NCBI GenBank assembly: GCA_003154195.1
Contig: PMCS01000008.1
Coordinates: 79,366-143,365 of the forward strand
DNA: 64,000 nt
Reading direction: 5' to 3'
Source: Candidatus Omnitrophota bacterium
GTDB taxonomy: Bacteria; Omnitrophota; Gorgyraeia; Duberdicusellales; 4484-171
Under the pieces are notes generated by a model. The model ran no database searches. It was given only the letters and a program-made list of their open reading frames with translations, and was not told where the DNA came from. The stretch's first letter is position 1. Every line of letters starts with the position of its first letter. Shown here in pieces: positions 3,154 to 63,836 of this stretch. The position numbers were made by a program, and so were the translations under genes.

Positions 3154-3169
3154 GCTTAAATTAAAAAAC

Positions 3170-3310
3170 GGTTAGGGCAATGGTAACGATGCCAGTATGG
3201 GTTATGGCTATGGTTAGGGCTGTAAATTTGTACCAGCCTTAACCCTTGCCTTTGCCCAAACCGGCCTCCTTACCTTAGCCTTAGCCTAATAAGTAACCTT
3301 AGCCTTACCC
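3170..3310. repeat. GGTTAGGG...CCCTAACC palindromic intergenic element, copy A
   Basis: Left arm ggttagggcaatggtaacg and right arm ccttaacccttgcctttgcccaaaccggcctccttaccttagcc. The core TTGCCTTTRCCCAAACCGGC is shared with the copies at 8945, 25551 and 63573. Confidence 0.7.
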
Positions 3311-3334
3311 AAAAAGAAATTTTATGCCCTTTAA

Positions 3335-4111: not shown

Positions 4112-4364
4112 ACCCCTTACTCTTTTTTAGCCACTATGGACTTATTATTTAGGTATCTCTGGATTATATCTATATATTTTTCGCGCATTTCAACCTAAAA
4201 TTATATTAATTTTTTTGTTTTTTGCTTGCCGTTATTTTTCTATATCAATTTTTATCCGTGACTATCCGTCCCCTTCGGGGAGGCTTCGCTTCGCTACGCA
4301 CTGTAAATCCGTGGCCAAAAAATATTTTTGATTCGACAATTTCGTATGTTTCATAGCAGACGGG

Positions 4365-6331: not shown

Positions 6332-6458
6332 CCGGAAAAATGCGGCAAACGCATTTTTCCGGTCCTGCCCTGCCTATCGGCAGGAAAAAATGCCGTTTAC
6401 CTTTCTTCTCCTATCCGCGAAGCGGATGATAATTATTTTTTGCTTCGCAAAAAATAAT
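6332..6458. repeat. cluster of four hairpin repeat modules
   Basis: ccggaaaaatgcggcaaacgcatttttccgg (6332-6362); cctgcctatcggcagg (6368-6383); atccgcgaagcggat (6413-6427); aattattttttgcttcgcaaaaaataat (6431-6458). Each module recurs elsewhere in the window. Confidence 0.8.
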
Positions 6459-9636: not shown

Positions 9637-10734
9637 TCACAGCCATTCCTTCAATTCCACGATTGCTTCTTTTATAATATCAAATGCTTCTTCATAATGT
9701 TCCTGGCTCTTGCCGATAGGATCGGGAACGCCGATCACTCTTCCATCGGATAAAAATTTTCTCAACGGGAAAACCCTGCCTTCTGCCGTCGGTTCAAGCT
9801 TTAAAACGTAATCGGTATGCGCGTCTTCCATGGTAAAAATCAAATCCGAAGAAAGAATCAACTGCCGGTTAAGTTTTGTCGCGCGAAAACCCCTGATATC
9901 CATGCTTTCTTTTTCTTTTAAAAGACTGACGATGGAACTGGAAGCCGCGGAGCCTTCATAAGCATAAACGCCGGCGGAGATTATTTCATACCGATCTCTT
10001 AAATATGGCTTCGATTCGTCAATCTGCTTCTCCAGAATAAATTGGGCCATGGGAGAGCGACAAGTATTGCCCGTACAGATAAAAATAACCCGTTTTTTTA
10101 TAAAAACATCGACGATTTCTCTTTCCGATATCGTCCCTTCCCGCAAAATCTTGAAAGGATTACACGTTAAATCTACAACCGTAGATGCTTGCCGATAAAG
10201 GGACGGCCCGCTGTCGACAATTAAATCCACAAGGTTTCCTAAGCCGGATTCGACTTCCTGAGCGGATGCCGCCTCCGGCTTACCGCTTAAATTTGCCGAA
10301 GGCAAATAGACCGGCGCGTTTACCCCTTTTAAGATTTTATTGGTAACAATGTGCGCCGGAATACGTATGCCTAATTTTTCGTCTTTATCCGAATAATAAA
10401 TCATCGTCAGCGGCCCCGGCCAAAATTTTTCCATCAGCCGATAAGCAAAGGGGGGCATTACGGTAAAATAGTAATCCCTTGCCTTTTCCCAGCTATCGGA
10501 AACAATGGCAAAAGGTTTATCGGGCGGCCGGTTTTTTATCCGGGCAAGTCTCTGCACGGCATCTTTGTTCTCGGCATAAGCCGCCAAACCATAAACTGTT
10601 TCCGTAGGCAAAACAACAATCATCCCGTTTAAGATAGCATCCACCGCTTTACCGATAAGCGCAAAATCAATTTTCTGAGGATCAATAAATATTTTTTCCA
10701 TATTATTTTTTGCTGCGCAAAAAATAACCGCCAT
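9637..10734 (-). CDS. fusion of threonylcarbamoyl-AMP synthase (TsaC/YwlC) and low-molecular-weight protein phosphatase (YwlE-like)
   Basis: N-terminal YrdC/Sua5 domain (VVLPTETVYGLAAYA...WPGPLT) and C-terminal LMW-PTP P-loop FICTGNTCRSPMAQ with ...VPDPIG. The likely true start is the ATG at 10701, one nucleotide from a hairpin. Confidence 0.8.
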   Translation of the reverse strand: MAVIFCAAKNNMEKIFIDPQKIDFALIGKAVDAILNGMIVVLPTETVYGLAAYAENKDAVQRLARIKNRPPDKPFAIVSDSWEKARDYYFTVMPPFAYRLMEKFWPGPLTMIYYSDKDEKLGIRIPAHIVTNKILKGVNAPVYLPSANLSGKPEAASAQEVESGLGNLVDLIVDSGPSLYRQASTVVDLTCNPFKILREGTISEREIVDVFIKKRVIFICTGNTCRSPMAQFILEKQIDESKPYLRDRYEIISAGVYAYEGSAASSSIVSLLKEKESMDIRGFRATKLNRQLILSSDLIFTMEDAHTDYVLKLEPTAEGRVFPLRKFLSDGRVIGVPDPIGKSQEHYEEAFDIIKEAIVELKEWL

Positions 10735-10825
10735 CCGCTTCGTCCCGACGCGCCTGAATATCGCGAAAATACCTTTTCAGACATTTTCGCGAAGCTTTCG
10801 GGACTCCGCTTACGCTTCGCGGATG
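10703..10825. repeat. AT hairpin plus interrupted CCATCCGC hairpin with about 70-bp nested insertion
   Basis: ttattttttgctgcgcaaaaaataa (10703-10727). ccatccgcttcg ... cgcttcgcggatg are split by an insert that carries its own palindrome cgcgaaaat...attttcgcg. Confidence 0.65.
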
Positions 10826-18120: not shown

Positions 18121-18454
18121 TTCCTTTTATTCGCTGTTCCAGCGAATTTCTATAAAACAATTTTGCGCCTCCGGCGGTGCCCTGCGGGCGGCGGTGTTAT
18201 AAAGCGGCTTGCCTTTGTGCTTTCCGCTCATAAGACAATTTTTTAACGGTAAAAGGCTGCGGTAATTTAGGCGGTTGCGTAACTCGCCCCGCCTCGGATA
18301 GCTCGGCGGGGCTCAAACACCCGCAACCGTCCCGGCTTCGCTTCGGGATTTCCTGAATTCCCTCAGCCTTTTACCTAAAATTGTCAAATCGCGGAAACCG
18401 CAAAGCCAATCCGTTTATAGGTTAAAAATAAAAAAAACAAATTGTGGATAGCGA
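18121..18454 (-). promoter_or_regulatory. 334-nt highly structured purQ-purF intercistronic/leader region
   Basis: Multiple hairpins: attcgctg/cagcgaat, gcggttgcg...cgcaaccg enclosing gccccgcc...ggcggggc, and cccggcttcgcttcggg. Also a 27-bp GC motif gcctccggcggtgccctgcgggcggcg (18166-18192) that recurs at 51384-51410. No riboswitch consensus was recognised. Confidence 0.4.
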
Positions 18455-19318
18455 TTATTTTTTACGAAGTAAAAAATAATTGACGGCGTTTTGAAAAATA
18501 CGTAATCCCCAGGGAACAGTTTTTTTCTTATGCCAATCGGGAATCTGGTGCTCGAACATACAGCGTTCCGGATGAGGCATCAGCCCTAAGATTCTTCCCG
18601 TCGCGTCGGTGATACCGGCAATGTTACGCAGGGAACCATTAGGGTTGACCGTTTCACTTTCTTCGATTCCACCAACATCATCACAATACCTGAAAGCGAT
18701 CCGGCCGGCGGCCTCAAGCTCCTTGACTATTTTTTGAGGCGCAAGAAACTTTCCTTCGCCGTGAGCAATCGGCAACCGTATCACTTCCGGTAAGCCCTTC
18801 GTCCATATCTTTTCCGGTTTTGTTTCTTTCTTTTCGTCCCTCGTCCTTCGTCCCCGCCATCCTGCGGATGGCGAGGTCTCGCCAATTTGTTTTACAAATT
18901 GGCGGACTTCTTCCTTCGTTTTAAGGTATATCCATCTATCAACAAACCGGCCGCAGTCATTAAAGCTGAGAGTGACTTTCTGCCGGAAATCCGCGTCGGG
19001 CAAGATTCCGGTTTTAACCATTACCTGAAAACCGTTACAAATACCCAGTACCAGTCCACCCTTGCCGATAAAAGCCTTTAATTCATCCTTGAGCCACAAA
19101 AGCAGTTCTAAAGAAAAAATTTTCCCCGCGCCGAGGTCATCGCCGTAGCTGAAGCCCCCGGGAAAACAAATAATCTGGTAGCGCGATAGGCTCTTTGCTT
19201 CTTTAACATAATTGATATGCCGCAAAGAAGCTTCGGCTCCGGCCAGCTCAAAGGCCAAAGTCGTTTCCTTATCGCAGTTAATCCCCGCCGTACGTAATAT
19301 TAATGCTTTAGGTTTCAT
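18455..19318 (-). CDS. purQ: phosphoribosylformylglycinamidine synthase I (glutaminase subunit PurQ) carrying an in-frame repeat-element insertion
   Basis: MKPKALILRTAGINCDKET...GICNGFQV...PIAHGEG...MPHPER. It carries about 28 extra residues (ETSPSAGWRGRRTRDEKKETKPEKI) relative to canonical PurQ. The ORF-track start at 19366 is a TTG; the ATG at 19318 is preferred. Confidence 0.85.
   Translation of the reverse strand: MKPKALILRTAGINCDKETTLAFELAGAEASLRHINYVKEAKSLSRYQIICFPGGFSYGDDLGAGKIFSLELLLWLKDELKAFIGKGGLVLGICNGFQVMVKTGILPDADFRQKVTLSFNDCGRFVDRWIYLKTKEEVRQFVKQIGETSPSAGWRGRRTRDEKKETKPEKIWTKGLPEVIRLPIAHGEGKFLAPQKIVKELEAAGRIAFRYCDDVGGIEESETVNPNGSLRNIAGITDATGRILGLMPHPERCMFEHQIPDWHKKKTVPWGLRIFQNAVNYFLLRKK
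18836..18905. repeat. three-hairpin repeat cluster inserted in-frame in purQ
   Basis: ccatcctgcggatgg (18858-18872), ggcgaggtctcgcc (18870-18883; same motif at 35918-35931) and ccaatttgttttacaaattgg (18882-18902). Confidence 0.7.
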
Positions 19319-19366
19319 AAAAATAAAATCGAGATAAAAACAAAACCATAAAGCTTCTACCACCAA

Positions 19367-19599
19367 GACACCAAGACACCAAAAAAATTAAAAACTATAG
19401 ATTTTTTCGTGAATTTGTGTCTTGGTGGCAAAAACATTTTTGTTTTTATTTTAAAACCTAAACCTTACCACAGAGGCACCAAAAAAAGACTCAAAACCTT
19501 AAAACTCTATCACTAAGGCACTAAGAAAACCAAAAATTATATTTTTTCTTAGTGTACTTGGTGCCTTGGTGGTAAATTTTTAGGTTTTATTCAGATACT
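19367..19599. repeat. purL-purQ intercistronic region with three long imperfect hairpins
   Basis: accaccaagacac...gtgtcttggtggt; taccacagaggcaccaa...ttggtgccttggtggta enclosing cactaagaaaa...ttttcttagtg. Confidence 0.6.
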
Positions 19600-22491
19600 T
19601 CACTGGAATTCTTTAAAAGTACCTGTCCAGGCCTTACGCAGTTTCGCAAGGCTTTCGTTTACCACCGGCTTACTGTTTTTGTTGTAAATCATTAAATCCG
19701 GTTTATCATCCACGCAGCCGATTAAACCAAAAGGCAGGCCTTTTAACGTTTTTTCAAAATCCTTTTTGTCTCGCTTTACCACTTCAACGATAAAACGCGT
19801 AGGCGATTCGCTGAATAAGACTTCATAATCCAGAAGCTTTCCGGACACAGGAGCTTCGGCTAAAAATACATTGGCGCCCAGGCCTGACCCCATGCACATT
19901 TCAGCAAGCGCTACGGCCATGCCGCCCTCGGATAAATCATGGCAGGAAGCAACCAGGCCTTTTTTGGCGGCCCGGCTTAATCCGGTAAAAATATCGTAAG
20001 CATCAGCCTTATCTACTTTAGGCACGATACCGCCGGTAATTCCGGCGTTACGAAAATATTGCGACGCGCCGAGTTCCGGCTTAGTTTTACCGACTAAATA
20101 AATCAGGTTGCCCCTTTGGGTAAAGTTATTGCCGGAAACTTCCTGCCAATCGTCAATCACCGAAATCGCCGAGATCAATAATGTCCCCGGTATGGCGATA
20201 TCCTTTCCCTCTACGGAATACTCATTATAAAGGCTGTCTTTCCCGGAAATAAAAGGAATTTTAAAATAAGTAGAAAAATCGTAGCAGCCCTTAGAAGCGC
20301 GCACCAAGCCGGCTAAAGTTTCAGGATCCTGCGGCGAACCCCAGCAGAAATTATCCAGAATATAGGTCCGGCGTAAATCCGCGCCGCAGCTTATCAGGTT
20401 GCGCAGCGCCTCATCGATTGCCAGGGCCGCAGTCCAATAAGGGTCGATATCAGAATAAAAAGGGTTTATCCCCATCCCGATGACTACCGCCTTGCGGCTT
20501 TTCAAATCAGGCCTTACCACTGCGGCGTCGCTTACCCCAAGCCGGCCGCCGGTTTCGGCCATCGATTTTAAAACCGAACCGGCCTGGACTTCATGGTCGT
20601 ATTGGCGTAAAATCCAATCTTTCGGGCTGATGTTGGGCGACGCCAGCAAAGCGAGTAAATCTTTATTATAGGACTTTTTATCGCCAACTTTTGTGTCTTC
20701 TTCTTTTTTAATCTGCCAGGCCGCTTTTTTAGCCAGCTTGGGCAGATTAAAAATAAAATCCATGTCGAGCTCTGCTACTTTATTGCCGGAGTAAAAAAGC
20801 CTCAATCTATGATCGCCGGTCACCTTGCCCACTACCGTCATCTCCACGTCTTCTTCGTCAAAGATTTCTTTTAAGGCCGTGATATTTTCTTCCTTAGTGG
20901 TAAATACCATGCGCTCCTGCGATTCGGATATCCAGATCTCCGTATAGGAAAGGCCGCGGTATTTTAACGGCACCTTATCGAGCTCAACTTCAACCCCATG
21001 CTCGGAGGCGATTTCAGTAATGGCGCTGGAAATACCGCCGGCGCCGCAATCGGTAATCGCGTTGAATAAATTCTTATCGCGGCTGCACAACAGCGCTTCG
21101 GTGAGTTTCTTCTCTTCGATGGCATTACCGATTTGCACGGCGCTGTTTAAGGCAACGGTCTGCTCGTCGAGCTCCCGCGAAGAAAAAGTCGCGCCGTGTA
21201 TCCCGTCGCGGCCGGTCTTTGCTCCGCATAAAACCACAACGTCGTCAATATCGACTTTCTTGAACGATTTATTTTTAGGGAGAATGCCCAGCGTACCGCA
21301 ATAAACCAGAGGGTTGCCCAGAAAGCGCCGGTCAAAAAGCACGGCGCCGGCGACCGTCGGGATGCCCATGCGATTTCCGTAATCACGCACGCCGCCAATC
21401 ACTCCTTTAATAATACGTTTAGGATGCAACAACCCCTTAGGAAGGTCATCGTAGCTGATATCCCAGGGAGCAAAACAAAAAACATCGGTATTGGCAAACG
21501 GCTTAGCGCCGCAGCCGGTGCCTAAAATATCCCTGATCACGCCGCCGATGCCGGTAGACGCACCGCCATAAGGCTCCAGGCTGGAGGGATGGTTGTGCGT
21601 TTCAACCTTAAAGCAAATATTATTTTTCGCGTCAAAATCGACGATACCGGAATTATCGTGGAATACGGAAACACACCCTTTGTGGCTAATCTCGTTGGTC
21701 GCCTGCATCACCGTAGATTTCAGCAGGCCGTTAATCGTCTCTTTTTTAACCACGGCGCCGGATTCGTCCCGCTCTTCGTATTCGATAATCCCCCGGAAAG
21801 TTTTATGACAGCAATGTTCCGACCATAGAGTGGCAATCGTCTCTAATTCGCAATCCGTAGGGTTATTTTGCCGGGCGGTAAAATAACCCTTAATAATCCT
21901 CATCTCTTCTAAGCTGAGCGAAAGACAGCCCTGTTTAGAAATTTCCATTAAACGATTGTCATCAGCCGAAAGAATATCAACGCTGCGTAGCTCAAAGCAA
22001 TAATCTTTGCCGGCGAACTCGCTCAAGGTAGATAAATTTTTAACTTTATTATAATCGAGCACATGTTCAATAAGCGGATTATACAAAACCCTGGGGGCCA
22101 GCTTTTCGATATCCCTGACGGATAAACCGTCAAACTTATACCAGCGGGCGGTACGCGCGGTGGCAACCGGCACGTTTAAATCCTTGATCGCTTTTTCTAA
22201 AGACAGCGCCACGGGATCGCACACCCCGGGATTATGGGTGACCAGAATCTCATTGATTTGAGGGGGCGCCGCAAAAAAACCTCGGGCAAGAATATAATTT
22301 TCAGTAACCGGATCGATGAGAAGCCGGATAACGATTTCTTCGATTTTGTTTTCGGGCAGATTCGATTCGATAAAATAAACCGTACGGCAAGAAGCCTCAA
22401 AGATTTTGCCGATGCCTGAATCTTTTATCTGGTTAATCAGTCCGGTATGCCGGCTTTCTTTTTTGGGGATGATATCTACGCGGTGAACCAT
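19600..22491 (-). CDS. purL: phosphoribosylformylglycinamidine synthase II (PurL) with N-terminal PurS-like domain
   Basis: 963 aa. The core carries typical PurL motifs (HNHPSSLEPYGGASTGIGGVIRD...). It is about 220 aa longer than stand-alone PurL, and the first 80 aa have a PurS-like pattern (...IDPVTENYIL). Confidence 0.85.
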   Translation of the reverse strand: MVHRVDIIPKKESRHTGLINQIKDSGIGKIFEASCRTVYFIESNLPENKIEEIVIRLLIDPVTENYILARGFFAAPPQINEILVTHNPGVCDPVALSLEKAIKDLNVPVATARTARWYKFDGLSVRDIEKLAPRVLYNPLIEHVLDYNKVKNLSTLSEFAGKDYCFELRSVDILSADDNRLMEISKQGCLSLSLEEMRIIKGYFTARQNNPTDCELETIATLWSEHCCHKTFRGIIEYEERDESGAVVKKETINGLLKSTVMQATNEISHKGCVSVFHDNSGIVDFDAKNNICFKVETHNHPSSLEPYGGASTGIGGVIRDILGTGCGAKPFANTDVFCFAPWDISYDDLPKGLLHPKRIIKGVIGGVRDYGNRMGIPTVAGAVLFDRRFLGNPLVYCGTLGILPKNKSFKKVDIDDVVVLCGAKTGRDGIHGATFSSRELDEQTVALNSAVQIGNAIEEKKLTEALLCSRDKNLFNAITDCGAGGISSAITEIASEHGVEVELDKVPLKYRGLSYTEIWISESQERMVFTTKEENITALKEIFDEEDVEMTVVGKVTGDHRLRLFYSGNKVAELDMDFIFNLPKLAKKAAWQIKKEEDTKVGDKKSYNKDLLALLASPNISPKDWILRQYDHEVQAGSVLKSMAETGGRLGVSDAAVVRPDLKSRKAVVIGMGINPFYSDIDPYWTAALAIDEALRNLISCGADLRRTYILDNFCWGSPQDPETLAGLVRASKGCYDFSTYFKIPFISGKDSLYNEYSVEGKDIAIPGTLLISAISVIDDWQEVSGNNFTQRGNLIYLVGKTKPELGASQYFRNAGITGGIVPKVDKADAYDIFTGLSRAAKKGLVASCHDLSEGGMAVALAEMCMGSGLGANVFLAEAPVSGKLLDYEVLFSESPTRFIVEVVKRDKKDFEKTLKGLPFGLIGCVDDKPDLMIYNKNSKPVVNESLAKLRKAWTGTFKEFQ

Positions 22492-25538: not shown

Positions 25539-25550
25539 AATTAAAAACTA

Positions 25551-25722
25551 GGTTAGGGTAAGGGTAAGGGTAAGGGTTAAGGGTTAAGGGTTAAGGGTTA
25601 AGGTTTAATAATCTTTTTTTTAAAAGCCTTTACCTTAACCCTAACCCAAACCCAAGCCGGCCTCGTAACCCTGACCTTAACCCGGTATTTATCATACCGG
25701 CTTCCTCACCCTAGCCTTGGCC
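25551..25722. repeat. GGTTAGGG/CCCTAACC-family element, copy C, with telomere-like G-tract minisatellite
   Basis: ggttaggg (gtaaggg)x3 (gttaaggg)x4 ... ccttaaccctaacccaaacccaagccggcctcgtaaccctgaccttaaccc...caccctagcc. There are seven GGG tracts spaced 3-4 nt apart. Confidence 0.75.
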
Positions 25723-29728: not shown

Positions 29729-29776
29729 ATTTTTTTGCTTCGCAAAAAAATATCCTTCCATCCGCTTCACGGATGG
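29728..29776. repeat. AT hairpin plus CCATCCGC-TTCA-CGGATGG hairpin pair
   Basis: tatttttttgcttcgcaaaaaaata followed by ccatccgcttcacggatgg, in the recJ 5' region. Confidence 0.8.
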
Positions 29777-29944
29777 AAAAGACACATCAAAATACCGACA
29801 CACCTATCAAACGTAGTCTTCTGGTACATGGATAACTCTCAAAATTTATTTTATCATAAAAACGGCGGAAACAGAAAAGATTTTAAAATTCGGCTTAATA
29901 TATAACATATTTATTAGCGAAATGCCAATTTTCAACCGGGAAAA

Positions 29945-35814: not shown

Positions 35815-36096
35815 AACCCGTTTATTCCAAATCTAGACTGCTCCCCACATCTCCGCCTATCCCGATAAGTATAAGTTTCAAGGAATAACAGCCCTTGCCT
35901 GCCAAAAGTTGAAACTTTTGGCGAGGTCTCGCCTCCGGCGGAAAATGTGAATTGACCCTATTTTCCCCGCCCCTTTTATTTTTTTAATCTGTGAAAATCT
36001 GAGGAATCTGTGGACAAAAAGCTTTCGTTTTTCCAGCTTCCTTTTTCCTTATTTTTTCCAATGCCCCGTTATATCACATTCCCCCAAAAAAGTAAA

Positions 36097-43298: not shown

Positions 43299-43658
43299 TT
43301 ACATTCTTTCTGCCGTACCTCTCAGCAAAACCAATATCGCCGAATGCGGAGCAACAACATATTTTTTGTTTTCGAATTTTATCTCAACGCCCTGATCCCG
43401 CAAAAAAATACAATAATCACCAGGCCGCGCCTGTAAAGGAAAATACCTGTCCCGCGCTTTAGTCGCCCAGGGCTCCTGGTCCAAAAGGCTGGGGTCGGGC
43501 ACAGGGTACCCCGGGCCGGTCTTCACGATTTTACCCGACTGCACCCGATCTTTATCTTTTACTCCCTGAGGAAGATAAAGCCCGCTGTCGGTCTTACCTT
43601 CACCCTCATCAAGCTCAATCAGCACCTTGTCGCCTACGATTATAAGTTCTTTGTCCAT
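43299..43658 (-). CDS. GroES/Cpn10-like protein with insertion
   Basis: IIVGDKVLIELDEGEGKTDSGLYLP...GDYCIF...KYVVAPHSAILVLL has a GroES-like pattern but with a 15-20 aa insert. No groEL adjacent. Confidence 0.4.
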   Translation of the reverse strand: MDKELIIVGDKVLIELDEGEGKTDSGLYLPQGVKDKDRVQSGKIVKTGPGYPVPDPSLLDQEPWATKARDRYFPLQARPGDYCIFLRDQGVEIKFENKKYVVAPHSAILVLLRGTAERM

Positions 43659-43662
43659 ATTT

Positions 43663-43980
43663 TTAATGAAACTTCGCCAAACACAAGCCCGAAGGGCGCC
43701 GCGCGAGGCGGTAGTCGAATTATCCCGAAGGGACGGGATTTACTTCGTAAAAAAATATCCTCCATCCGCTTCGCGGATGGAGAAAAAATAAATAAAATAT
43801 TTCCCCTGCGTCTTTAATGATACTAAAACATCTTGTTTTAGTCAACCCCGTTAGAAAACTTCGTTTTCTAACGGGGTAAAGATAAATAGTTTAACCGAAA
43901 AAATTTTTCCTGCCTAAGGCAGGGCAAGACCGAGAAAATGCGTAACCGCATTTTCTCGGTTAGCGAAAACTATTTATCTA
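43663..43980. repeat. mosaic of at least seven hairpin repeat modules (candidate structured RNA)
   Basis: Inverted family-3 element (43663-43740); ccatccgcttcgcggatgg (43762-43780); ctaaaacatcttgttttag (43823-43841); ccccgttagaaaacttcgttttctaacgggg (43848-43878); cctgcctaaggcagg (43909-43923); ccgagaaaatgcgtaaccgcattttctcgg (43929-43958); all within an outer palindrome agataaatagttt...aaactatttatct. Confidence 0.75.
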
Positions 43981-46558: not shown

Positions 46559-46885
46559 AAGTTTTAGCGATAATTATTTTATACCCGGCGAGACTCATTG
46601 CTTAGGGCAATGGGACTAAGCCTCAAACTCATTGCCCCCTTCGGGGCAATGAAACTTGGCCCGCCAAATACGGCGGGAGTTAGTTTCATTGATTCGGCTA
46701 TCCCCCTACGGGGATAGTTCAACTAAGCCCGGGGCACCAGGCAAGTTTCATTACGGCGAAGTCTCAAGCTCATTACCTGAAATCTGAAGTCGCGCTCTAA
46801 GCGCTCCCACGATTCCAGGTAATTCGACTACCGCCTCATTCTGCGCCCTTCGGGCTTGTATTCGGCGAAGTCTCATTAGATATCG
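46559..46885. repeat. tandem array of short hairpins ending in a family-3 element
   Basis: cattgcttagggcaatg; cattgccccttcggggcaatg; cccgccaaatacggcggg; ctatccccctacggggatag; gcgctctaagcgc. Then ggtaattcgactaccgcctc...cttcgggcttg...ggcgaagtctcattaga (46818-46882). Confidence 0.75.
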
Positions 46886-48021: not shown

Positions 48022-48103
48022 CCCTTCGCTTCGCTCAGGGTTAATTCGACTACGGCCTCACTCTACGCCCTTCGGGCTTGATTTCGGCCAAGTCTCATTA
48101 AAT
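48022..48103. repeat. family-3 element (GGTAATTCGACTACCGCCTC...GGCGAAGTCTCATTAAAT)
   Basis: cccttcgcttcgctcagggttaattcgactacggcctcactctacgcccttcgggcttgatttcggccaagtctcattaaat. Confidence 0.8.
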
Positions 48104-48170
48104 AAAAAAGGGGTAGAATTCAGTTTATTTCTGAAATTCCACCCCTCCTTTCCGCTTATTGAGCGGTAAA

Positions 48171-51382: not shown

Positions 51383-51486
51383 AGGTACAATGCCTCCGGC
51401 GGTGCCCTGCGGGCGGCGTGTGCTATATGGCGGATTGGTTTTGCGCTTTATAGGTGGAAAAGAAAAAAATAAAACTTAAACTAAAT

Positions 51487-56983: not shown

Positions 56984-57058
56984 CCCCCTTCGGGGGTAAT
57001 TCGACTACCGTCTCGTCCGGCGCGCTTTGCGCTTGGACTCGACGAAGTCTCATTAAAT
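56984..57058. repeat. family-3 element
   Basis: taccccttcgggggtaattcgactaccgtctcgtccggcgcgctttgcgcttggactcgacgaagtctcattaaat. Its 3' TCATTAAAT contains the greA stop. Its 5' hairpin sits 8 nt upstream of the ygiQ ATG. Confidence 0.8.
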
Positions 57059-57523
57059 TGATATACCCACAACTTTATACTTAAGTACTCCGGCAGGGAC
57101 CTCTACTTCTACCGTATCTCCTACCGCTTTGCCCAACAGCGCTTTTCCGACAGGAGAAGTAACGGAAATGGAGCCGTCGGCGGCGTTTGCCTCATCAGAA
57201 CCTACCAGTTTATATTCCGTTTCCTCCCCGGTATCTAAATCGGCTATTTTAACTTTATTACCCAGATAAGCTTTGTCGCCGGCAGCAACCGGGTGCTCGA
57301 TCAGCTCGGCTCGCGTAAGCCGGTCTTCTAAATCTTTTATTCTTTTTTCGTTGTGCGCGAACGCTTCTTTGGCCGCGTCATATTCGGCGTTTTCGCTTAA
57401 ATCGCCCAGAGAACGCGCGTGCGACAGAGCCGCGGCGATTTCCCTGCGCTTTTTATTCTTCAGTTCCTCTAATTCCTTAATTAATTTATCATGCCCTTCT
57501 TTAGTTAAATAAATCCTTTCCAT
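57053..57523 (-). CDS. greA: transcription elongation factor GreA
   Basis: MERIYLTKEGHDKLIKELEELKNKKRREIAAALSHARSLGDLSENAEYDAAKE... typical of GreA. Confidence 0.9.
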   Translation of the reverse strand: MERIYLTKEGHDKLIKELEELKNKKRREIAAALSHARSLGDLSENAEYDAAKEAFAHNEKRIKDLEDRLTRAELIEHPVAAGDKAYLGNKVKIADLDTGEETEYKLVGSDEANAADGSISVTSPVGKALLGKAVGDTVEVEVPAGVLKYKVVGISI

Positions 57524-61039: not shown

Positions 61040-61298
61040 CGCAAAAAATACTGCCATCCGCTTGCGCGGATGGGAAAAAGGTAGATTACAGAAAAACAAC
61101 CAAGAAACAATCACCAAACAATATCTAATCTCATAGTGGTTATTTTAGCACTTTCGGTATTATAGACAAGATTATAAATCTTAACGCTTAAGTTTATTTT
61201 TTGCGCCGCGAAAAAAGACCCTTCGCTTCGCTCAGGGTAATTCGACTACCGCCTCGTCCGGCGCGCTTCGCGCTTGGACCCGGCGAAGTCTCATTAAA
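61040..61298. repeat. repeat cluster: half AT hairpin, CCATCCGC hairpin, AT hairpin and a family-3 element
   Basis: gccatccgcttgcgcggatggg (61053-61074); ttttttgcgccgcgaaaaaa (61197-61216); cccttcgcttcgctcagggtaattcgactaccgcctcgtccggcgcgcttcgcgcttggacccggcgaagtctcattaaat (61217-61298). Confidence 0.8.
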
Positions 61299-61877
61299 TT
61301 TTTTTAAAAGTTTTTTAAAAACCCTGCCGGGAAATCCCACGACGTTATCGTAGTCTCCCTTAATAGATTTTATAAACTGGCCCCTTAAATCCTGAATCGC
61401 GTAGCTGCCGGCTTTATCGCGGAAATCGCCGCGGCCGAGATAATCGGTTATTTCGTCAGCCTTAAGCTTTTTAAAATTAACTTCCGTCTTCGCATAATCC
61501 GTGACTAATTTTTTATCGCGCCGCCGGCACAGGGCAAGCCCGGTGATAACTTCGTGAGTATTCCCCGATAAAATCGAAAGCATCTTTTTCCCGTCCCGGT
61601 AATTCCGCGGCTTGCCTAAAATCTTATTCTTAAAAACAACAATGGTATCGGCGCCGGCCACAATCAATCGGGGAAATTTTTCAGCTACCGCTTGCGCCTT
61701 TAATGTCGCTGCCAAAACCGCAAATGAAACCGGGTTTTTTTCTTTAATCGCACCTTCATCGATATCGGCAGGGTAAATAATAAAGTCTCTGACGATTTTT
61801 TTAAGGAGATTTATCCGGCGCGGCGAGCGGGAGGCAAGGACAATTTTAATATTTTTATAATTCTTGCGGGGTTTCAT
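61194..61877 (-). CDS. maf: Maf-like nucleoside triphosphate pyrophosphatase with repeat-encoded C-terminal extension
   Basis: IVLASRSPRR...GADTIVV...GKP...; Maf fold. The last 33 or so residues (ETSPGPSAKRAGRGGSRITLSEAKGLFSRRKK) are translated from the family-3 element plus an AT hairpin. Confidence 0.85.
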   Translation of the reverse strand: MKPRKNYKNIKIVLASRSPRRINLLKKIVRDFIIYPADIDEGAIKEKNPVSFAVLAATLKAQAVAEKFPRLIVAGADTIVVFKNKILGKPRNYRDGKKMLSILSGNTHEVITGLALCRRRDKKLVTDYAKTEVNFKKLKADEITDYLGRGDFRDKAGSYAIQDLRGQFIKSIKGDYDNVVGFPGRVFKKLLKKFNETSPGPSAKRAGRGGSRITLSEAKGLFSRRKK

Positions 61878-63572: not shown

Positions 63573-63836
63573 GGCTGAGGCAATGGTAATGCCATCCTTC
63601 GCTCTTCGAGCTTCGGAGAAATCTTGCCGAAGCCTTGGCGAAGGCAGACCTTGGCGAAGGCAGACCTTGGCGAAAGCAGACCTTGGCGAAGGCAGACCTT
63701 AGCGAAGGCAGACCTTAGCGAAGGCAGACCTTAGCGAAGGCGGAAAGCCCGTATGGGTTATAGTTAAGGTTATGGCTGTGAATTCGTATCAACCCTAACC
63801 ATTGCCTTAACCCAAACCGGCTTCCTAACCCTAGCC
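63573..63836. repeat. GGTTAGGG/CCCTAACC-family element, copy D, containing a 16-bp tandem repeat
   Basis: ggctgaggcaatggtaatg...; tandem (ggcgaaggcagacctt) of about 6.7 copies at 63637-63743; ...gtatgggttatagttaaggttatggctgtgaattcgtatcaaccctaaccattgccttaacccaaaccggcttcctaaccctagcc. Confidence 0.8.

Follow-up and report, generated by a model that had tools for sequence, protein, structure and literature searches.

The purQ gene (18455..19318, minus strand) of a Candidatus Omnitrophota bacterium carries an in-frame palindromic segment that we read, with a probability of roughly 0.8, as one copy of a dispersed family of palindromic elements, similar to the repetitive extragenic palindromes (REPs) and bacterial interspersed mosaic elements (BIMEs), inserted into a permissive loop of the encoded protein. 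The gene lies in a 64,000-nt stretch of contig PMCS01000008.1, hereafter the window, and its open reading frame (ORF) encodes the glutaminase subunit of phosphoribosylformylglycinamidine (FGAM) synthase, a GATase_5 protein of 287 residues counted from MKPKAL. The segment is a doublet of two palindromic units. It belongs to a multicopy family whose hairpins covary and whose members also lie in frame in unrelated genes, and it is absent from homologous PurQ proteins. The doublet is probably either mobile or spread by gene conversion.

The doublet spans 18853..18906 on the minus strand, has a core of 52 nt and leaves the purQ frame unbroken. Aligned with the family consensus, it reads T CCGCCAA TTTGTAAAACAAA TTGGCGAG A/C CTCGCCA TCCGCAGGA TGGCGG G, where the slash marks the boundary between two units that stand head to head, and the segment tCCGCCAATTTGTAAAACAAATTGGCGAGACCTCGCCATCCGCAGGATGGCGGg agrees with this consensus at every conserved position. 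Unit 1, in the U(+) orientation (18877..18906, minus strand), forms an 11-bp hairpin CGCCAATTTGT-AAA-ACAAATTGGCG, closed by a T:A pair and containing an A that bulges out, as seen in the hairpin listing, the folds and the covariation; the hairpin itself covers 18880-18904 in minimum-free-energy (MFE) folds. Unit 2, in the U(-) orientation (18853..18876, minus strand), appears in the hairpin listing and folds as CGCCATCC-GCA-GGATGGCG, which the folding programs lengthen into an 11-bp stem that includes a single G.U pair (CCTCGCCATCC-GCA-GGATGGCGGGG, 18852-18876). Compared to shuffled sequences, the folding of the region has z scores of -5.8 for RNA and -7.6 for DNA; none of 200 shuffles was as stable. 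The two 11-bp hairpins are separated by AGA and have the stem base CGCCA/TGGCG in common, and because of this shared base their junction also reads as a palindrome, GGCGAGACCTCGCC. A sequence-only reading of the window had described three palindromic modules, CCATCCTGCGGATGG (18857-18871), GGCGAGGTCTCGCC (18870-18883) and CCAATTTGTTTTACAAATTGG (18882-18902). All three are present inside the purQ ORF, with the frame intact and the peptide correctly quoted; however, the middle one is the junction between two head-to-head units, so that the view of three separate modules is rejected, and the stems given were too short for what are two 11-bp hairpins.

The copies in other genes share with purQ not only the doublet but a block of ~90 nt (18831..18920, minus strand; blastn and alignment A3), which includes flanking GGAYGAA heptamer-like repeats and exceeds the 70-84 bp of the sequence-only reading. 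Within it, the direct repeat ACGAAGGA stands on the left (18912..18919) and on the right (18844..18851) of the doublet, both on the minus strand. The remaining extra sequence of purQ consists of degenerate heptamer-like repeats in a row, GGACGAA GGACGAG GGACGAA AAGAAAG.

The segment sits in a hypervariable loop of PurQ (residues 133-170, KTKEEVRQFVKQIGETSPSAGWRGRRTRDEKKETKPEK; 18809..18922, minus strand), delineated from an alignment of 27 PurQ homologues (A1), the loop lengths in the top 120 homologues, the predicted local distance difference test (pLDDT) scores of an AlphaFold model and the structure of StPurL (PDB 1T3T). The loop is bounded by RW(V/I)YL and xIW(L/T)KGLP, and ranges from 6 to 63 residues among the 120 homologues. 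With 38 residues against 6 in the shortest homologues, the window protein has an excess of ~32 residues, rather than the 25-28 first proposed. The glutaminase domains of FGAM synthases with solved structures can be aligned up to the loop from either side but are ~32 residues shorter there, with 32 residues across the loop region in StPurL compared to 64 in the window protein. An empty site would be expected to read ..AAAACGAAGGA..GACGAAAAG.., and the peptide predicted from the segment includes QIGETSPSAGWR. The stretch TKEEVRQFVKQ, which had been taken for a conserved PurQ block, is part of this variable loop, and its VRQFVKQ portion is encoded by the element. In the AlphaFold model (mean pLDDT 72, built from only 28 sequences), residues 137-165, located between two strands, have pLDDT values below 50. 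The loop is predicted to be disordered, and its length variation points to a permissive site; the suggestion that the glutaminase tolerates an insertion at its surface fits this hypervariable length and predicted disorder. Among the top 120 homologues, a G-E-x-S-P segment is absent from every PurQ other than the window protein.

We scanned one genome per GTDB species with the pattern GCCAAN{10,16}TTGGCGAGNNCTCGCC, which specifies 19 bases, and obtained at least 108 stretches, compared to ~30 expected by chance according to our own estimate. About a third of the matches listed resemble chance matches in GC-rich genomes. The others share features that the pattern did not select, namely a pyrimidine and CC before GCCAA and, after CTCGCC, a second hairpin and then TGGCGG with a purine. 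At least 65 non-redundant full doublets were extracted; this number, and the 62 and 60 doublets analyzed below, refer to the matches listed by the scan, a sample that the pattern biases towards head-to-head dimers. The termini yCCGCCAA ... TTGGCGGr are kept in all 65 doublets, though they lie outside the search pattern. In total, 52 doublets reside in metagenome-assembled genomes (MAGs) labelled Omnitrophota, nine in third-party-annotation (TPA) MAGs labelled Planctomycetes-type, one each in MAGs labelled Elusimicrobiales, Desulfatiglandales and Deltaproteobacteria, and one more in an unclassified MAG. At least 16 doublet loci were found in the single MAG STF1_189. MAGs of Thermodesulfovibrionia and Sedimentisphaerales, among others, contain related variants whose second hairpin is minimal.

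A second member of the family is found in the window itself. It is intergenic (35898..35942, plus strand), reads cCTGCCAA-AAGTTGAAACTT-TTGGCGAG G/T CTCGCC-TCC-GGCGG A, and follows the covariation of the family (C:G and T:A). Its first hairpin is of the form GCCAA...TTGGC and the second is a minimal one, CGCC-TCC-GGCG; the 5' arm carries one substitution. The 14-mer GGCGAGGTCTCGCC recurs once in the window, between the two hairpins of this intergenic member, and the 64 kb thus hold two family copies. Literature searches on the core sequences, and on Omnitrophota together with palindromic repeats, found nothing relevant, and the family has apparently not been described before.

Further analysis of 60 distinct doublets revealed hairpin tips that are highly diverse yet paired. 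There are 54 different tip sequences in the first hairpin and 56 in the second, and beyond the conserved bases the perfect stems extend by 5.6 and 4.7 bp on average, compared to 0.6 and 0.45 bp in shuffles; AT, TA, CG and GC pairs are all found at the same stem depths. The bordering bases covary as well. The base before CCGCC (f5) and the first central base (N1) are complementary in 61 of 62 copies (Fisher p = 2e-14), and the second central base (N2) and the base after GGCGG (f3) in 59 of 62 (p = 5e-11), whereas the control pairs N1:N2 and f5:f3 are complementary in only 37 and 35 copies, respectively. Both window copies, in purQ and in the intergenic region, obey the f5:N1 and N2:f3 rules. 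The covariation and the paired tips therefore define the entity as a single unit with a bulged A, Y-C-CGCCAA-[hairpin]-TTGGCG-A-G-R, and in the doublet this unit and an inverted copy of it stand head to head, in the layout yCCGCCAA-[hairpin]-TTGGCGAGr / yCTCGCCA-[hairpin]-TGGCGGr. A four-way junction (cloverleaf) of the 52 nt, in which CCGCC would pair with GGCGG on the outside and GGCGAG with CTCGCC on the inside, was also considered, but it was rejected on the grounds that the covariation links f5 to N1 and N2 to f3, and that the MFE folds show two hairpins.

With lengths of 24-35 nt, the units are short dispersed imperfect palindromes, as are REPs and BIMEs in general. When oriented by the bulged A, the loci examined contain 68 head-to-head dimers and seven tail-to-tail junctions (TGGCGGAT CCGCCA; TGGCGGry CCGCCA), an alternation of orientation known from REP dimers and BIMEs (PMC3733652); the search pattern favours the head-to-head form in this sample. 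The flank logo has R-Y before CCGCC and R-C after GGCGG, and the nearest flanking base is paired on each side. Neither the logo nor the covariation shows an unpaired GTAG or CGTC at the unit ends, the tag that marks the REP superfamilies. The doublet ends in inverted termini of 8 nt, yCCGCCAA ... TTGGCGGr, a feature shared with the terminal inverted repeats of MITEs (transposable elements of the miniature inverted-repeat type).

Besides PurQ, doublets are carried by leucyl-tRNA synthetase (LeuRS), E2 and E3 proteins, a macro-NUDIX protein and two large secreted-type proteins. In two LeuRS genes that are 61% identical (L072 and L073), the doublet occupies the same site, at which the Thermus thermophilus LeuRS has a clean 20-residue gap. 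Moreover, doublets are found in lipoyl-domain linkers of two E2 acyltransferases and one lipoyl-domain E3 (L053, L056 and L098) and at the domain boundary of the macro-NUDIX protein (L033), and further doublets form C-terminal tails (L057, L055 and L029). Every ORF-internal copy is read in the frame GGC GAG NNC TCG CC, which yields G-E-x-S-P. This frame is free of stop codons in 69% of the copies, compared to ~55% for the other two frames, and by availability alone its uniform use has a probability of ~0.001-0.004 over ~7 independent events, according to our own estimate; the use of a single frame is likely due to selection on the encoded peptide. An in-frame palindrome in unrelated housekeeping genes, with a conserved peptide, is what characterizes the Rickettsia palindromic elements (RPEs), and the proposal that RPE-like repeats have colonized coding sequence is supported by the dispersed family, by these in-frame copies and by the identical 52-nt copies described below. 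As a separate observation, the two LeuRS doublets (L072 3569-3627 and L073 4101-4159) have the same first hairpin and wholly unrelated second hairpins, each perfectly paired, as if a module had been replaced or insertion had occurred more than once at this site.

A metagenome scan with unit 1 of the purQ copy as query retrieved this unit next to tRNA-Ser genes (L118) and, from one JGI sample, two long contigs (L119 and L120) that contain all 52 nt of the doublet without a difference. In L119 and L120 it lies in frame (..DEVRQFVKQIGETSPSAGWR..) in two large proteins with a mutual identity of only 44%. Compared to the window by blastn, both contigs match only at 18831-18920, over 74-90 nt at 94-96% identity, and in alignment A3 the similarity reaches 12-25 nt into the GGAYGAA-type flanks. 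Because the doublets are 100% identical inside hosts of 44% identity, they must be much younger than their host genes or have been kept uniform by conversion. A short JGI contig (L117; Ga0395713_0054949, 1-170) is chimeric, with its junction within the 52-nt doublet; the first 54 nt correspond to the left flank of L119 and the rest to the right flank of purQ; the L119 and purQ loci therefore both occur in one sample. P0122, a variant in the cluster of P0001, a protein identical to the window PurQ, was considered as an alternative purQ allele and rejected, as it is a spurious gene model at the end of this chimeric contig.

Direct repeats of at least 7 nt, such as ACGAAGGA (purQ), GAAGGACGAA (L120), AGTAGAGAG (L088) and GGCTAATA (L104), flank 13 of the 65 doublets, compared to 1.7 +/- 1.4 when the pairings are shuffled. 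They vary in length and offset and merge with simple repeats of 7-8 nt, and the lag-7 self-similarity of the doublet flanks is elevated. A target-site duplication of fixed length was not demonstrable across the 65 doublet flanks. Such flanks are the starting point of the strongest rival, in which doublets would be copied by gene conversion or recombination between GGAYGAA-type arrays that serve as homology, with no dedicated transposase. The extension of the shared block into heptamer-like flanks on both sides fits this scheme, as do the heptamer arrays without a doublet in other Omnitrophota PurQ loops, the module swapping suggested by the LeuRS pair with its single shared hairpin, and the failure to find a cognate transposase in the 0.86 Mb scanned. 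We consider it unlikely, however, since the flanks resemble each other imperfectly and over no more than 12-25 nt, or in many doublets not at all, and the sharp conserved termini are typical of an element recognized by an enzyme. In other Omnitrophota, the DNA that encodes long PurQ loops consists of degenerate heptanucleotide arrays (GCAGATG)n of up to 11 units (L007), and those of L006 and L007 yield peptides with a 7-residue periodicity. Compared to L006, the heptamer array of the L004 purQ contains an extra hairpin module of 24-26 nt, GTGCGAAGCCTCCCCGCAGGGAATAA; a near-identical core of this module (GCGAAGCCTCCCCGAAGGGGA) is also present in the intergenic region 4112-4364 of the window.

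The 5' arm of the unit, TCCGCCA, equals the 3' end of tRNA-Ser, namely the acceptor strand, G73 and CCA. According to ARAGORN, at ~10 loci (L028, L035, L043, L046, L058, L065, L077, L086, L095 and L118) the last bases of a tRNA-Ser gene with anticodon CGA, GGA or TGA form the 5' arm of a unit. These loci belong to MAGs labelled as several different phyla, and in L065 and L118 the adjoining unit is identical to unit 1 of purQ. No tRNA type other than tRNA-Ser abuts a unit in the loci examined. The link to tRNA-Ser may stem from a rule of target choice, from the way the family arose or from a role at the RNA level. In addition, L093 contains a fragment resembling the 5' half of tRNA-Ser fused to a doublet.

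A motif scan of 0.86 Mb of locus sequence revealed one Y1 HUH transposase gene (L059 1572-2195; PF01797, E = 6e-11), which resembles the REP-associated tyrosine transposases (RAYTs) and lies in the Omnitrophota MAG STF1_189. The gene is bracketed by GTAG REPs unlike the doublet units, and it could not be established as the cognate transposase. A doublet stands 40 nt outside its upstream GTAG REP, and the composite of a GTAG REP, 38-43 nt and a doublet recurs at six STF1_189 loci (L059, L016, L039, L074, L085 and L103), so hitch-hiking on the RAYT system is possible in this genome. No GTAG REP was found near the purQ doublet, and no RAYT in the window. Tentatively, and with considerably more doubt than the insertion itself, the doublets might form a third, untagged REP-like superfamily, in which the unit imitates the 3' end of tRNA-Ser (TCC, G73 and CCA) or uses it as a target, moves as single-stranded hairpins by hitch-hiking on GTAG-REP/RAYT systems or through another enzyme, and recurrently supplies GExSP loop cassettes to essential proteins of Omnitrophota and their neighbours.

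The strong conservation of structure through covariation would also be expected of a selected functional element, acting either in the mRNA of the purL-purQ-purF operon (for example in translational pausing, RNase processing or the control of stability) or as a protein-binding 18-bp palindrome, TTGGCGAG-ry-CTCGCCAA. REPs in other bacteria have been reported as RNA elements (PMC3733652), and the units directly 3' of tRNA-Ser genes in several lineages hint at a role of this kind. Such a function is nevertheless improbable for the purQ copy. The other 119 PurQ genes examined lack the element, and its positions in host genes (linkers, loops and tails) are unrelated to their function. Neither purQ hairpin is followed by a T-run, as an intrinsic terminator would be, and the doublet copies inside essential ORFs also speak against that class. 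Nothing in the window exceeds an Rfam gathering threshold, and a permissive Rfam search of the doublet region gave only spurious sub-threshold matches to snoRNAs and miRNAs. Moreover, the covariation favours single-strand hairpins over a duplex site, N1 and N2 being complementary in only 37 of 62 copies.

Two further origins carry very little weight. Local replication slippage and template switching within the loop, unrelated to other loci, would suit the slippage-prone simple sequence of the loop in many homologues and the hairpin-rich window (90 stems of at least 8 bp, compared to 9.6 expected), but this origin is contradicted by the identical 52-nt sequence in two unrelated genes and by the termini and central core shared with 65 further copies among the matches listed, and is rejected. 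An ancestral PurQ loop lost in other lineages, which the sequence-only reading had named as the finding that would undo its proposal, is about as improbable: it accounts for DEKKETKPEK, the last ~10 residues of the loop, which resemble the loops of several other Omnitrophota PurQ in A1 (DEKKETKPEKIW compared to EEKKIKKPENIW), whereas the doublet-encoded part is unique among the 120 homologues and 100% identical in DNA to copies in unrelated genes.

Under the insertion that we favour, a block of ~90 nt, consisting of the 52-nt doublet and short flanking simple repeats, would have entered a surface loop of PurQ in which simple-sequence expansions already accumulate in Omnitrophota. Arrival could have been by transposition, or by gene conversion via a single-stranded hairpin intermediate. 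The purQ copy would persist as it is in frame and stop-free, and its GExSP frame would give a peptide that is hydrophilic and suited to a loop. Neutrality is the most likely state of the insert, and the doublet family would populate the genomes of Omnitrophota and of some neighbouring lineages. Several points weigh against this account. The protein search found no PurQ relative between 67% and 90% identity and hence no empty-site allele, so that, with no close relatives in the collections, the insertion is deduced from distant homologues. The translation of the segment, like the activity of the enzyme, is predicted from the sequence. No cognate transposase could be tied to the doublet by the motif scan of 0.86 Mb. 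Some taxon labels of the MAGs are unreliable, as L099 (labelled Planctomycetales) and L087 (labelled Omnitrophota) match in the doublet and in as much of the flanks as was compared, and the organism of L119 and L120 may differ from that of the window. The flanking repeats could be target-site duplications of variable length, or equally pre-existing heptamer arrays or the mark of an insertion preference for short-period arrays.

As for the host gene, PF13507 is assigned to P0001, and the window protein matches FGAM synthase glutaminase domains of known structure. The catalytic residues C94, H249 and E251, the triad of the GATase_5 core, are invariant across A1, and as they are intact, PurQ is most likely still functional. 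In the protein search, the identical protein is followed by hits of ~60-67% identity, likewise from Omnitrophota MAGs. Eight contigs encode this same protein, and the locations displayed for it belong to three ENA assemblies; the doublet-bearing purQ is therefore not an accident of assembly. The gene is flanked by purL on one side and by purF-purM on the other. The purL gene of the window (19600-22491) encodes 963 residues; its orthologue in L006 has a weak N-terminal PurS-like match (PF02700), which suggests a PurS-PurL fusion. At the other end of purQ, a copy of an AT-rich palindrome (18454-18480) contains the stop codon and encodes the C-terminal LLRKK, a tail missing from PurQ homologues, which end in NYFK instead.

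This palindrome is one of 11 window copies of a 26-nt family, ATTATTTTTTGC-TTC-GCAAAAAATAAT (18454-18480, 6432, 10702, 16494, 24902, 29727, 32549, 39767, 61193, 61960 and 63386), which are probably bidirectional terminator-like hairpins. A GC hairpin, CCATCCGC-GAA/TTC-GCGGATGG (43760-43782, 29756-29778, 61054-61073, 10728-10745 and 6413-6427), usually adjoins an AT-rich palindrome or a T-run and resembles a shared intrinsic terminator; its stem is similar to that of purQ unit 2 (CCATCC-GCA-GGATGG). Long intergenic hairpins at 3154-3334, 19335-19453, 25539-25722 and 63617-63836 have arms made of 6-8-nt simple repeats, such as GGTTAAG and CCCTTAA, and a tandem array of seven copies of the 16-nt sequence CCTTGGCGAAGGCAGA occupies 63617-63760. 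A repeat family of 66-83 nt has five copies (46817-46882, 48039-48104, 56994-57059 and 61235-61300, with an inverted one at 43644-43738). Its copies contain a GCCC-TTCG-GGC hairpin and, on one of the strands, the motif GGCGGTAGTCGAATTA, and the family may be a GTAG-tagged REP of the classical type. The 27-mer GCCTCCGGCGGTGCCCTGCGGGCGGCG is identical in two intergenic regions, 18167-18193 and 51392-51418.

Intragenic repeats are best documented in Rickettsia and a few REP-rich bacteria, and Omnitrophota is an uncultured phylum of very small cells. The doublets would extend the phenomenon of intragenic palindromic repeats to this phylum. Several of their traits are useful, namely the lack of a GTAG or CGTC tag, an arm in common with the 3' end of tRNA-Ser, tips that change while remaining paired, and a single reading frame. 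The family thus provides a comparative system for the movement of elements, their absorption by loops and the share of selfish DNA in the variation of protein length in streamlined genomes. In practical terms, the repeat yields chimeric contigs such as L117, and in MAGs it leads to gene models that are inflated or wrongly delimited.

Among known systems, MITEs such as ERIC, BOX and Nezha, together with others, can make in-frame fusions (PMC10969869). The doublets resemble them in having terminal inverted repeats, in being small, structured and non-autonomous, and in lying occasionally within genes; however, they are much shorter, their internal sequence is not conserved, they have no known parent insertion sequence, and their flanks did not show a clear target-site duplication of fixed length. 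Units of alternating orientation that form hairpins, are non-autonomous, persist in a lineage and include subfamilies within one genome also recall the REPIN-RAYT system and the BIMEs of Escherichia coli. REPINs are nevertheless defined by a single-copy cognate RAYT flanked by the same REPs, whereas the RAYT of L059 is flanked by a different REP.

The RPEs are the classic in-frame palindromic insertions, first described at ~150 bp (Ogata et al. 2000, 2002, as summarised in PMC10969869). They and the doublets both lie in frame in unrelated housekeeping genes, encode a family-typical peptide (G-E-x-S-P for the doublets) and are presumed compatible with fold and function. There is no evident relation between them, and the descriptions set them apart: the RPEs first described are sequence-defined Rickettsia families of ~150 bp, whereas the doublets measure 45-75 nt with only the stem bases conserved. 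RPE-4 and RPE-6 are CGTC-tagged REPs of Rickettsia (PMC3733652), and this tag is missing from the doublet. The likeness to Rickettsia elements drawn by the sequence-only reading thus holds, although the closest described analogue is not the long RPE-1 but the intragenic REP dimer (PMC3733652).

Intragenic dimers of GTAG and CGTC REPs add 20-30 residues to proteins, including tRNA synthetases (Di Nocera et al. 2013, PMC3733652), and are notable in Opitutus terrae and Rickettsia conorii (PMC3733652). Compared to them, the doublet family belongs to another host phylum, has no established cognate RAYT and lacks the unpaired GTAG or CGTC tag; instead, it conserves a paired stem base with a bulged A, yCCGCCAA/TTGGCGAGr, its 5' arm equals the 3' end of tRNA-Ser, and its tips are far more variable. 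Despite these differences, the two share a similar architecture. Both consist of short imperfect-palindrome units, mostly arranged as head-to-head or tail-to-tail dimers with 0-2 nt between the partners, and both include heterodimers with different stems and loops. In either case there are many dispersed copies, a minority of which lie wholly within ORFs and add 20-30 residues, while some overlap the ends of ORFs.

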